64,000 nucleotides of DNA from Alphaproteobacteria bacterium (GTDB lineage Bacteria > Pseudomonadota > Alphaproteobacteria > Paracaedibacterales > CAITNM01): positions 5,755 to 69,754 of the forward strand of contig JBAXJB010000003.1 in NCBI GenBank assembly GCA_037138055.1, written 5' to 3'. Under the pieces are notes generated by a model, which had not been told where the DNA came from, ran no database searches, and worked only from the letters and a program-made list of their open reading frames with translations. A program made the position numbers and the translations under genes. Of the stretch, positions 35,285-37,702 are shown piece by piece. Each line of letters starts with the position of its first letter. Position 1 is the first letter of the stretch.

Positions 35285-37702
35285 ATGAGCACAAGAAACT
35301 ATTTGTGTGGGTTACTCGTTGCCCTGAGTATTGCACGATCAGCAGATTCTGCTGAAGCAACAGTTACTCTTTACGCTGAGATTGAAGAAATCTTAACAAG
35401 AACTACTGATTTTTCTGAAAAAGGCTACACAGAAGAAGCAGACAATATGGCCAGACAAACGACTAATCAACTGATTACCACTCTATCTGACAGGATTGCC
35501 ACACAGCCCGAAATTGACATAATGGTCGACGCACATCTCAAAACCGAATTGTATTACGCTTTCAATACTCAGTGGGGAACAGGAAAAGTTAGAAATCACC
35601 GTATAGTATATGATTTCTTAAGCCATCTTGATAAATCAATTGCTAGAGATGTTCATCAAAAAGAACATTTATTAAAAATCACAATGCTTTCCTTAGCAGC
35701 ACAAGAGTATTTCTGGAATGAAAAATCAACGCTTGATGATTTAAGGAATCGTGTAAAGCGTGAATTACGCTACGGACTATTTAAGCAAACGGGCAACAAA
35801 CTAGATATTTCAGCCATAGTGTGCCTTGATGAAGATAATCTAGAGCGCGTTGCCAATGAATCTATCTCTGACACGGTATTTGTAAAATTAGGAGCCATGT
35901 TAAGTGGTTTTAAAATGAAAAGTTTGGGTGCAACTTACGCAGCTATATTTGATCATTTAACCACTGTGCTCAATAGTGTTGCAGAAACAGCATTACCCCT
36001 TGAACTTGAAGCAGAAACAATTGCACCACTTGGACTTTCTACAAGTGTAGCACTTAAACCGGTGCCTTCATTAGGAGATGGAATGTGTGGTGAGCATAGC
36101 TGTTTTGTACCAACAGATGGCCAGCTAGAAGGCATACAAGAAGGAAATGGTCGTTATAAAATTTATCGAGCTATTTTAGATCATGCAACTGATAGTGAGG
36201 CCAAACGACTCTATTTTCTTGCCAGCAGACATATGGATGGAATTGGTTTTGTAACACTTATCTCTAATAAAATTGCAGCACTTCGTTTAACAGATTCGGA
36301 ACAAGCAGATGCACTACAAGCAAAACTAGATACTTATCAAGCATTTCTAATAGATAAACAAGCAGAAAATGAAGCACTTTTGGCACAATCAAAAAAAGAC
36401 TTGGTAATGCACGTTACCCAATTGCCTACGCTAGAAACATCATTAACTTCTTTCCACGCTTTTTTAAATATGCCTGATCAATTAGCAATGGGTGCTCACG
36501 CCAAAAATTTTAAAAACATAATAAACGAAGTAATGTCATTAAGAGCTTCCAATGCCGAATTAAATAGGCTTTTAGAAACAATTGATGCTGAAATCCTTAG
36601 ACTAGATAATGAAGCAAAAGTAGCAGAAACAACAGCTAAAGCGGCAATAGGAACTGCTCGCACTGAAACTGAAGCCGCCTTTAGATTAGCGCAAGCAGAA
36701 TTCGAACAATGCCAAAAAAGTAACGAAGCTCTTATTAAAGAGCATAAAGCGCTGTTTGCCACCAAACAACAGTTAGATCATTTTATTAAAACTGTAACGA
36801 CAACAGAAGTTGCGATGCAAGCAGCAAGAAATGCTCTAGCACTAAATGAAGAGAAAATTAAAGCGTTTGAATTAAAAAATCCAGAATTTATTAAAGAAAT
36901 TGGACAAAAACAAGTAACCATGCTGAGTTTGCATCAAAAATATGGCACCCTTGCAGAAAACTACTCTGATAGAGACGCTAAGCAAACAGAAAAATATATT
37001 TTAATTGGTAACACTTTAAAAGATTTTATTAGCGTAAATATGCTCCCCGGAAGAAGCGAACATGCTTTTTCAATAGATGCTCTTTGCACAACGGGATATG
37101 CCAATTTTATCAATGGAGTTTGCCAAGAAATTTGCACTACAACCGCTAACCATGCCGAAGCAAAAGCAATTAGAATGCTTTGGGATAGTTATGATAGTAA
37201 AAAAGAAGCACTTAACAGGAAAATGAATCAACAGTTGCTTTCACAACGACTAGAAATAGCAACATCATTGCCTGTTCTTCCTACAGAACTTTCAGCTGAT
37301 TCTTTGAGAGCAGAAATGGAAACATTAGCACTTAGAGAAGATGAACTACGTGGTTGGCTACCTTGTGACGCGCCTTATACTCAATTATGGGCAATTATTA
37401 ATAATGTGAATGTCTTTGTTTTTTCAAGCGGAGAAGCATATGGCAGAACACCGCTTGACGTCATGACCCGTCTTAAAGATAGACCATATGATAGCGTAAC
37501 AATGCCGTACCCAGCAGAAACAGCTGGCAAACACCTAGCCACTGTTATTTTAACATCGCCAACAGCTAAAAATATATTTTTAGATAAATCAATTGGTCAT
37601 TATGACAAATTCATATCACCAGGTGATTATGCTGCTATAGCACAAGAAATTCGTCATGTAGCGTGGACAAAACTAGAAGATAGATACGCATCGTATCCAT
37701 AA
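35285..37702 (+). CDS. Large (805 aa) coiled-coil protein with OTU-like Cys and His motifs; candidate secreted effector
   Basis: Hydrophobic N-terminus MSTRNYLCGLLVALSIARSADSA. The Cys-loop-like motif is PSLGDGMCGEHSCF (Cys268, codon 36086-36088). A long heptad-rich A/E/K/L/Q region follows, at roughly aa 330-680. Then come PYTQLWAIINNVNVFVFSS and a His-loop-like IGHYDKF (His772, codon 37598-37600). Confidence 0.55.
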   Translation: MSTRNYLCGLLVALSIARSADSAEATVTLYAEIEEILTRTTDFSEKGYTEEADNMARQTTNQLITTLSDRIATQPEIDIMVDAHLKTELYYAFNTQWGTGKVRNHRIVYDFLSHLDKSIARDVHQKEHLLKITMLSLAAQEYFWNEKSTLDDLRNRVKRELRYGLFKQTGNKLDISAIVCLDEDNLERVANESISDTVFVKLGAMLSGFKMKSLGATYAAIFDHLTTVLNSVAETALPLELEAETIAPLGLSTSVALKPVPSLGDGMCGEHSCFVPTDGQLEGIQEGNGRYKIYRAILDHATDSEAKRLYFLASRHMDGIGFVTLISNKIAALRLTDSEQADALQAKLDTYQAFLIDKQAENEALLAQSKKDLVMHVTQLPTLETSLTSFHAFLNMPDQLAMGAHAKNFKNIINEVMSLRASNAELNRLLETIDAEILRLDNEAKVAETTAKAAIGTARTETEAAFRLAQAEFEQCQKSNEALIKEHKALFATKQQLDHFIKTVTTTEVAMQAARNALALNEEKIKAFELKNPEFIKEIGQKQVTMLSLHQKYGTLAENYSDRDAKQTEKYILIGNTLKDFISVNMLPGRSEHAFSIDALCTTGYANFINGVCQEICTTTANHAEAKAIRMLWDSYDSKKEALNRKMNQQLLSQRLEIATSLPVLPTELSADSLRAEMETLALREDELRGWLPCDAPYTQLWAIINNVNVFVFSSGEAYGRTPLDVMTRLKDRPYDSVTMPYPAETAGKHLATVILTSPTAKNIFLDKSIGHYDKFISPGDYAAIAQEIRHVAWTKLEDRYASYP

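Follow-up and report, generated by a model that had tools for sequence, protein, structure and literature searches.

A putatively Sec-exported 805-residue protein family with a candidate split OTU-like core, encoded upstream of tssF in Finniella/Odyssella-like endosymbionts

Introduction

What is a large protein without any recognisable domain doing beside the baseplate genes of a type VI secretion system (T6SS) in an alphaproteobacterial endosymbiont? The question is raised by an open reading frame (ORF) in a stretch of 64,000 nucleotides from Alphaproteobacteria bacterium (order Paracaedibacterales; GenBank assembly GCA_037138055.1, contig JBAXJB010000003.1, positions 5,755 to 69,754), called the window here, which has a G+C content of 37.7% and to which all positions refer unless a locus is named. 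The ORF (35285..37702, forward strand) starts with ATG, has an AGGA ribosome-binding site 8 nt upstream and encodes 805 amino acids plus a stop. An initial annotation, made from the letters alone, had singled out four elements in it, namely a Cys-loop motif, a short helical stretch, a long heptad-rich region and a segment, PYTQLWAIINNVNVFVFSS, followed by a His motif, and had compared them with OTU deubiquitinases. Translation of the ORF places all four exactly in that order and at those residues, and the gene does lie directly upstream of tssF, which starts 71 bp downstream.

Among Holosporineae endosymbionts, not one secreted effector has been characterised, and a recent review of the group makes no mention of ubiquitin (PMC11909080). 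Our literature search for OTU proteins or deubiquitinases together with Paracaedibacter or Holosporales yielded nothing relevant. The best explanation of the 805-residue protein, to which we give a probability of roughly 0.5, is a Sec-exported putative cysteine hydrolase with a split OTU-like (papain-type) core. In the following we set out the conservation, the predicted structure and the genomic context on which this explanation is based, and weigh it against other explanations of the same protein.

A Narrow Family with Invariant Cys and His Motifs

The protein had been taken for an orphan, which it is not. A word-indexed search of 5.8 billion protein clusters returned 38 homologues at E<=0.01, with identities of 97-38% and none with a Pfam domain or an informative name, and an exhaustive profile search of 1.84 billion representative proteins returned 31 at E<=1e-3. 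The family numbers about 40-60 relatives, all in metagenome-assembled genomes (MAGs) of Finniella/Odyssella-like alphaproteobacterial endosymbionts, and is real but very narrow. The genomes concerned are assigned to Candidatus Finniella (a Ca. Finniella inopinata MAG matches at 97% identity), to Ca. Odyssella sp. or to unclassified Alphaproteobacteria. Members of the Paracaedibacteraceae (Holosporineae), to which Finniella is assigned, live as obligate endosymbionts in the cytoplasm of cercozoan amoeboflagellates and ciliates (PMC11909080). The protein family is covered by no Pfam or NCBIfam model: the protein and 27 trimmed family members gave no Pfam family at E<=10, neither OTU nor any other protease, and an NCBIfam scan of the protein gave no assignment.

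Conservation was read from an alignment of 39 family members, in which S262, D265, G266, C268, G269, S272, T277, D278, N288, R290, K292 and D299 are invariant, while H772, Y773 and K775 are at least 90% conserved and missing solely from truncated entries. A distant branch from the exhaustive search (P0054-P0059) carries the motifs GxxQCGFFS and GGHY[DE]K, and the Cys, Gly, Ser, His, Tyr and Lys stay invariant once this branch is aligned with the main family. Neither the Cys nor the His is absent from any full-length member, tandem paralogue copies included, and we regard the two motifs as more than chance. Within the His motif, Tyr773 would be the aromatic residue and Asp774 the putative third member of a catalytic triad, a position held by D, E or N in relatives and rarely by S.

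Conservation is unevenly spread along the protein. The majority-residue fraction is 0.71 in the C lobe, 0.65 in the N-domain, 0.62 in the Cys lobe and 0.46 in the insert between the two lobes (boundaries in Table 1), and the length of the insert ranges from 218 to 350 residues among relatives. Conserved lobes with a variable insert are the pattern expected of catalytic lobes flanking a variable insertion. The N-domain has its own invariant residues (E88, Y90, Y91, N94, R106, D110, F111, E141, F143, W144 and N145) and a motif, LSLAAQEYFWNEKST, that is also found in the distant members. The C-terminal portion of the insert (approximately residues 565-620) is better conserved than the rest of it. 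Here residues 566-617 (36980-37135) follow the well-conserved pattern EKYxLIGxTLKxFI...MLPGxS..AFxIDxLCxxGYxxFINxxCQxIC. The distant branch lacks this segment, which might hold a disulfide or a metal site once exported, or else contribute to a substrate-binding surface. In the 39-member alignment C613 is invariant, and conservation of C617 and C694 reaches at least 90%; these cysteines, too, are absent from the distant branch.

The gene has a ratio of nonsynonymous to synonymous substitution rates (dN/dS) of 0.17-0.25 against close and intermediate relatives and is therefore under purifying selection. This ratio is 3-5 times that of neighbouring genes, and dN itself is 4-9 times theirs. Since the bacterium lives as an obligate endosymbiont in the cytoplasm of protists and the gene's rate of evolution is 3-5 times that of its neighbours, a eukaryote-directed role is plausible, and to this extent the earlier proposal of a eukaryote-directed effector holds; delivery by the T6SS, which had been suggested along with it, is the unlikely part.

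Predicted Structure

A full-length AlphaFold2 model built from the family alignment has a mean predicted local distance difference test score (pLDDT) of 85.9 and a predicted template modelling score (pTM) of 0.70, and about 70% of the protein is alpha-helical in it. In order, the model shows a strand, the Cys loop, several helices, the insert, one more helix and a set of strands, with the His on a hairpin: strand 254-260 leads into the Cys loop, and His772 opens the last strand of a predicted beta-hairpin (strands 762-769/772-777). The insert of about 323 residues is modelled as 13 helices, is 85% helical and consists to 48% of A/E/K/L/Q, and its heptad periodicity is significant only around residues 407-480. 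The initial annotation was thus right to see a long all-alpha region here, but not a coiled coil of 350-400 residues, and on the model the insert is better called a helical lobe than one long coiled coil.

Evidence for and against an OTU Fold

Fold searches with the C lobe point to the OTU family. In a Foldseek search of the PDB with the C-lobe model, the first-ranked match was the OTU domain of OTUD1 (4bop_B; E 0.13, probability 0.60), and OTU domains from eukaryotes, nairoviruses and Wolbachia made up 12 of the top 50 matches (OTUD1 twice, a rice OTUB-like protein, OTUB1, TcTV1, wMelOTU twice, DUBA, and the OTUs of Crimean-Congo haemorrhagic fever virus (CCHFV), Hazara, Farallon and DGK viruses). 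As a baseline, a seven-sequence OTU profile matches about 40 of the 177,635 distinct PDB sequences. Papain-like families other than OTU, NlpC/P60 included, are missing from these top 50 PDB matches. Against the BFVD the best E-value was 0.033, with matches to OTU-annotated giant-virus proteins, a Marseillevirus 'OTU-like cysteine protease' fusion, the tenuivirus L N-terminus, alloherpesvirus ORF62/83 and a tymovirus replicase, several of which carry OTU-type proteases.

The motifs point the same way. The usual OTU threading is C...H-aromatic-D/N/E, with a Trp that clamps the Gly-Gly of ubiquitin and a basic residue that supports the Cys loop (PMC7396840), and H772-Y773-D774 fits this definition. 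The clamping Trp might be W691 (at least 90% conserved) or W702, which does not vary within the main family, and the basic residue might be R290 or K292, both of them invariant. The Cys loop shares G-D-G-x-C-x-x-H-S with the viral OTU (vOTU) of CCHFV, whose motif is GDGNCFYHS; the CCHFV vOTU sequence used is 100% identical to PDB 3ZNH/3PHW and the yeast OTU1 sequence to 3BY4.

Profile comparison was made with an OTU profile of 123 OTU1-family and nairovirus sequences, drawn from 309 proteins found with a seven-sequence OTU seed alignment (a search with yeast OTU1 alone found 7 proteins). We ran hhalign on the whole core, allowing alternative alignments, and on the Cys and C-lobe blocks taken separately. 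The alignments span 9-33 columns at P 0.03-0.2, and what aligns with the OTU profile is limited to the Cys and His motifs, 9-18 residues long. Cys loop aligned to Cys loop in correct register over 18 columns (P 0.048) against vOTU and over 16 columns (P 0.2) in the block test, and His loop to His loop, also in correct register, over 9-11 columns (P 0.06-0.08).

Several results weigh against the OTU-like hydrolase. All C-lobe Foldseek matches are non-significant singly (E>=0.03, template modelling score about 0.3, root-mean-square deviation about 9 Å), and the C lobe modelled alone, with its secondary structure unchanged, reaches a mediocre pLDDT of only 63. In the Cys loop, pLDDT falls below 50 over residues 266-280 and the model places no helix behind the Cys; the third triad position is Ser in two members, and the Asp of D-G-x-C is lost in the distant branch. 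hhalign of the trimmed family core gave no significant alignment to the 123-sequence OTU profile, and no OTU similarity appeared in the Pfam scan at E<=10. Profile searches of the PDB returned coiled-coil noise with the whole family, nothing real with the C lobe alone and, with the trimmed core, only mini-G matches arising from a GSGS linker. As to location, a protein with a Sec signal arrives first in the periplasm, which contains no ubiquitin, and no outer-membrane export route was identified within the 64-kb window. The negative profile result lowers the claim of OTU membership but is not decisive, because in a control a classical OTU profile detects LotA only marginally (E 0.3-0.8) and misses OTUB, A20, LotB and LotC.

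Taken by its parts, a papain/OTU-like hydrolase core is probable. An OTU fold of the whole core is plausible on the motifs, the topology and the weak fold matches, and the catalytic roles of C268, H772 and D774 are putative. The OTU-like protein with a large helical insertion that had been proposed therefore stands as far as the invariant Cys and His, the H-Y-D motif on a hairpin, the element order and the OTU-dominated Foldseek matches go, but not at the level of significant E-values or of profiles, which see short motifs only, and not with a confidently modelled Cys loop. The check that had been suggested for it, AlphaFold followed by Foldseek against OTU structures, was informative for the C lobe; with the full-length model, Foldseek returned from the PDB only long helical proteins at E>=0.01, which is uninformative.

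It could be argued that the protein is no enzyme at all, being instead a secreted or periplasmic structural helical protein with Cys and His motifs that serve a structural purpose (metal or disulfide) and a coincidental resemblance to OTUs. Its largely helical make-up, the lack of significant similarity to any enzyme family, the modelling of the Cys loop as disordered and the conserved C613, C617 and C694, which could form disulfides or a metal site after export, would all agree with this. Nevertheless, we consider it very improbable, given that two divergent branches both keep the Cys, the His and the aromatic residue without variation, in an OTU-specific arrangement and secondary-structure context, that OTU domains are strongly over-represented in two independent fold libraries (PDB and BFVD), and that the other conserved cysteines are absent from the distant branch.

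A Proposed Mechanism and Its Substrate

If the protein is an OTU-like hydrolase, its parts may work together as follows. A beta-strand would lead into the Cys loop G-D-G-M-C268-G, which would supply the nucleophile, and a large helical lobe (about 420 residues between the Cys and the C lobe, some 320 of them variable insertion) would come before a C lobe of helix and beta-sheet that carries the general base and its acidic partner, H772-Y773-D774. The conserved helical N-domain of 200 residues that precedes this core may supply substrate recognition together with the helical lobe, which, fast-evolving as it is, could be the substrate-binding (S1) platform, as in the Legionella Lot deubiquitinases. 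Cys268, His772 and Asp774 would cleave conjugates of ubiquitin or a ubiquitin-like modifier (Ubl), and likely targets, within the protist host's cytoplasm, would be host proteins or the surface of the bacterium itself. Export would begin with Sec, and a further outer-membrane step would bring the protein to the bacterial surface or into the host cytoplasm. We infer both this localisation and a substrate that is ubiquitin or a Ubl. Cleavage of such a modifier in particular is the activity that we consider likeliest, a tentative assignment with chances that come close to even at best.

The same fold and triad evidence would serve an OTU/papain-like protein that is not a deubiquitinase, such as a protease of another modifier (Atg8, NEDD8, SUMO or UFM1-like), a deamidase, an acyltransferase or an autoprocessing domain. 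The core has diverged far from characterised OTUs, the N-domain and the helical lobe have no counterpart in known deubiquitinases, and the Cys loop is followed by an invariant PTDG...N-x-R-x-K segment that is not described for OTUs. However, the bacterial OTU-fold effectors characterised in two studies (PMC7396840, PMC7690952) all act on ubiquitin, and while nothing else speaks specifically against a function of this other kind, we think it unlikely.

A bolder version of the deubiquitinase explanation, which we hold to be doubtful, is that this is a new OTU-like family, confined to protist endosymbionts of the Paracaedibacteraceae type, that is exported by Sec and not by a contact-dependent injection system, is released from or displayed on a bacterium living naked in the host cytoplasm and strips ubiquitin or Ubl marks, possibly non-protein ester-linked ones, from the bacterial envelope, with a rapidly evolving helical lobe of record size adapting to the ubiquitin machinery of each host.

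The Export Route and the Type VI Secretion System

At the N-terminus of almost every full-length member, 1-3 basic residues are followed by a hydrophobic core of 12-18 residues and a small-residue site. As this pattern is kept although the sequence of the segment is poorly conserved, we read the N-terminus as a Sec signal peptide family-wide, in agreement with the initial annotation, which had noted a Sec-signal-like N-terminus in the single protein. In the protein from the window it consists of MSTR, YLCGLLVALSIA and RSADSA. A lipoprotein was rejected, Cys8 not being at a lipobox position, and so was a Tat signal, there being no twin arginine.

T6SS cargo is loaded in the cytoplasm. A Sec signal therefore argues against delivery by the T6SS, even though the genomic position invites the idea of an OTU-like effector that is loaded on VgrG or the baseplate and hence encoded with tssFG. 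In 14 of 16 loci tssF has a homologue immediately upstream of it and on its strand, the 71-bp gap in the window contains no terminator-like site, vgrG is found 4.4 kb upstream, and the T6SS is seen as the main candidate effector route in Holosporineae, with no effector known (PMC11909080). Set against this are the family-wide Sec-type signal peptide, unexpected in such cargo, and the lack of any PAAR, MIX, adaptor or VgrG-linked domain in the Pfam and NCBIfam scans of the protein. In addition, the gene adjoins tssFG and not vgrG, from which it is separated by lepB, a patatin gene, tsaD and a gene for a major facilitator superfamily (MFS) transporter; the homologues in two more distant genomes (loci L014 and L015) have housekeeping genes around them and no T6SS gene close by (in one, MacB/FtsX, a HAD hydrolase and IleRS; in the other, PGI, XerC/D and ProC); and related families that lack the 805-residue gene have tssF-tssG as a module of its own (PMC8163844). 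We judge T6SS cargo to be quite improbable, the T6SS association previously suggested to be weak, and the position upstream of tssFG to be lineage-specific synteny.

The protein had also been said to occupy the position of tssE, a matter of interpretation that the evidence does not support. This bacterial group has a modular T6SS layout with stand-alone [tssG-tssF] and [ywqK-vgrG] modules and with tssE elsewhere (PMC8163844). The only likeness to TssE, the gp25-like baseplate protein, is gene position upstream of tssF-tssG. TssE measures about 130-170 residues, as opposed to 805 here, and the 805-residue protein has a signal peptide and no match to a GPW_gp25/TssE model in Pfam or NCBIfam. TssE or any other structural subunit of the T6SS was rejected on these grounds.

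A Sec signal peptide and a conserved Cys/His pair would also suit a periplasmic or envelope papain-like hydrolase that acts on a bacterial substrate (peptidoglycan stem peptides or lipoprotein links) and may help an atypical T6SS to cross the cell wall. Papain-like NlpC/P60 enzymes share the Cys...His order. The adjacency to baseplate genes is conserved, and the T6SS of Holosporineae is non-standard, with components apparently missing (PMC11909080). Yet no NlpC/P60, CHAP or other cell-wall hydrolase family was matched at any threshold in Pfam or NCBIfam, the fold matches are OTU domains with no NlpC/P60 structure among them, and the GDGxC and H-Y-D motifs are of OTU type; homologues are also encoded away from any T6SS genes. 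Tandem paralogues exist, and the gene's rate of evolution is far above that of its envelope and housekeeping neighbours, both of which better suit host-facing proteins. With NlpC/P60 identity itself rejected for want of matches, an envelope hydrolase seems to us an unlikely explanation.

Comparison with Known Systems

The exported OTU-like hydrolase that we favour resembles several known systems in part. The Legionella OTUs LotA, LotB/Ceg23 and LotC/Lem27 are, like the protein described here, from intracellular bacteria, and have the Cys...His-aromatic-acid order in common with it; going by their published description, its helical insertion is at the equivalent position. The helical lobe measures 178-210 residues in the Lots, 50-60 in classical OTUs and 110-120 in otubains (PMC7690952). 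Here, in contrast, the lobe would be roughly twice the largest described. The Lots also differ in lacking the additional conserved N-domain and in having a Dot/Icm type IV signal where this protein has a Sec signal peptide, which argues for a different export. There is no detectable sequence similarity, the comparison being with published descriptions of the Lots and not with the Lot sequences themselves.

Classical OTUs (OTUD1, OTU1/YOD1, OTUB1 and the nairovirus vOTU; PF02338) are the best fold-search matches of the C lobe and are alike in the H-Y-D His motif after a beta-hairpin and in the helix and central strand ahead of the His strands. Unlike them, the 805-residue protein has 504 residues from Cys to His (about 105-115 in yeast OTU1 and CCHFV vOTU), two extra strands between the helix and the His hairpin, and no match to them at Pfam or profile level.

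By analogy, the closest functional precedent would be Burkholderia TssM, a deubiquitinase that is physically linked to and co-regulated with a T6SS cluster, is secreted by the type II secretion system (T2SS) and has a proposed role in clearing ubiquitin from the surface of bacteria in the cytosol (PMC10719079). Both would be deubiquitinases (putatively so here) of cytosol-dwelling bacteria with T6SS-linked genes and a Sec-dependent, T6SS-independent export, which is predicted for the protein discussed here. TssM is of the ubiquitin-specific protease (USP) type, a deubiquitinase or esterase, whereas this protein is OTU-like, so the resemblance is one of logic and not of ancestry. Use of the T2SS has been shown for TssM, whereas the window contains no T2SS genes.

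Genomic Surroundings

The coordinates of the protein's features and of the neighbouring T6SS genes are collected in Table 1. The vgrG module (27.8-30.9 kb) and tssFG (37.8-40.6 kb) are dispersed in the window, which matches the layout reported for related families (PMC8163844), and a scan of the whole window for T2SS genes and for T6SS genes beyond these found none. No terminator-like site was found in a forward-strand scan of the gap between the 805-residue ORF and tssF, and co-transcription with tssFG is thus possible. tssF and tssG overlap by 46 nt (39540-39585), as tsaD and the MFS gene do by 28 nt (33983-34010), and both overlaps recur in related loci.

Table 1. Features of the 805-residue protein and its gene neighbourhood. 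Positions refer to the window except for the tandem paralogues, which are given by locus.
Feature	Position	Strand	Residues	Remarks
Predicted signal peptide (Sec-type)	35285..35353	+	1 to ~17-23	
N-domain	35372..35974	+	30-230	all-helical, conserved
Cys lobe	35975..36295	+	231-337	beta-hairpin, strand 254-260, Cys loop, helices 289-299, 304-313, 319-336
Cys-loop motif GDGMCGEHSCF	36074..36106	+	264-274	putative nucleophile Cys268, codon 36086-36088
RYKIYRAILDH		+	290-300	helical stretch
Helical insertion	36296..37264	+	338-660	between Cys lobe and C lobe; fast-evolving, length-variable
C lobe	37265..37699	+	661-805	helix 697-705 (YTQLWAIINN), six beta-strands, helix 782-795; most conserved region
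Element before the His motif		+	697-715	PYTQLWAIINNVNVFVFSS
His motif IGHYDKF	37592..37612	+	770-776	putative general base His772, codon 37598-37600
tssF	37774-39585	+		PF05947 E 2e-159, TIGR03359
tssG	39540-40553	+		T6SS baseplate pair with tssF; functional link of tssFG to the 805-residue ORF is by context only
vgrG	27829-30000	+		723 residues, TIGR03361; separate T6SS module
MORN_2/YwqK-like gene	30003-30854	+		283 residues, MORN_2 repeats; starts 2 bp after vgrG
Tandem paralogues	L001 10001-14665; L008 8642-13216; L011 8759-13288			

In the three loci with tandem paralogues, a copy of about 699 residues is followed by one of about 790-820 residues upstream of tssF, and both contain the Cys and His motifs. 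In the contig of P0004 and in locus L005, the MFS gene and the homologue are separated by an extra ORF of 755 residues that runs on the opposite strand and has no Pfam match. In L005, which holds a relative of 62% identity, the MFS gene has a stop and is called as pieces of 232 and 77 residues (6353-7528), and tssF is split over two frames (residues 1-93 and 93-603; 12499-14309); either pseudogenisation or assembly frameshifts would account for these broken genes.

The pair of vgrG and the MORN_2 gene matches the [ywqK-vgrG] module, of toxin/antitoxin type, that is reported for Paracaedibacteraceae. Within the neighbourhood the MORN gene ranks second in evolutionary rate (dN/dS 0.10-0.15), and it varies in length among relatives. 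The patatin-like phospholipase (363 residues; 31802-32893, reverse strand) is kept in the synteny block and has a tandem duplicate in L009 (316-1380 and 1506-2582); by analogy with the Rickettsia Pat proteins, it is a candidate for a host-membrane-directed activity. The interval between tssG and ksgA (40603-41940) is a variable spot across loci: in the window it holds a P-loop 'DNA topology modulation'-like kinase of 171 residues and a reverse-strand ORF of 242 residues without a Pfam match, in L001 a Sel1-like ORF of 801 residues (17533-19938) and in the P0004 contig a class A penicillin-binding protein, and in L003 it is nearly empty, at 117 bp (15263-15380).

Further away, a membrane sensor of 724 residues (11192-13366, reverse strand) combines dCache, HAMP and a class III adenylate/guanylate cyclase, a notable piece of signalling for a reduced endosymbiont genome. 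Seven other ORFs of the window, of 221-527 residues, have no Pfam family at E<=1e-4 and are candidate lineage-specific or host-interaction proteins (527-1267; 1323-2441, reverse strand; 7627-8520; 23114-24697; 26482-27147; 44726-45565; 49194-50399).

Significance

If the OTU reading is wrong, the 805-residue protein still represents a conserved, fast-evolving and exported Cys/His family, mainly of specialist interest. If it is confirmed, the family would be an OTU-like one with a helical lobe of record size, an extra N-domain and Sec-dependent export, and the OTU fold would be extended in two ways, by a helical lobe about twice the largest known and by the Sec-dependent route. It would also provide, after Burkholderia TssM, a second case of a T6SS-linked deubiquitinase that uses another export route, and a caution against reading T6SS cargo from gene position alone. 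Should the bolder version prove true as well, it would amount to an independent, OTU-based reinvention of the TssM strategy and to the first effector activity assigned in Holosporineae. For the biology of these endosymbionts, a confirmed deubiquitinase would be the first molecular handle on how these widespread protist symbionts avoid the ubiquitin-dependent clearance of their hosts.

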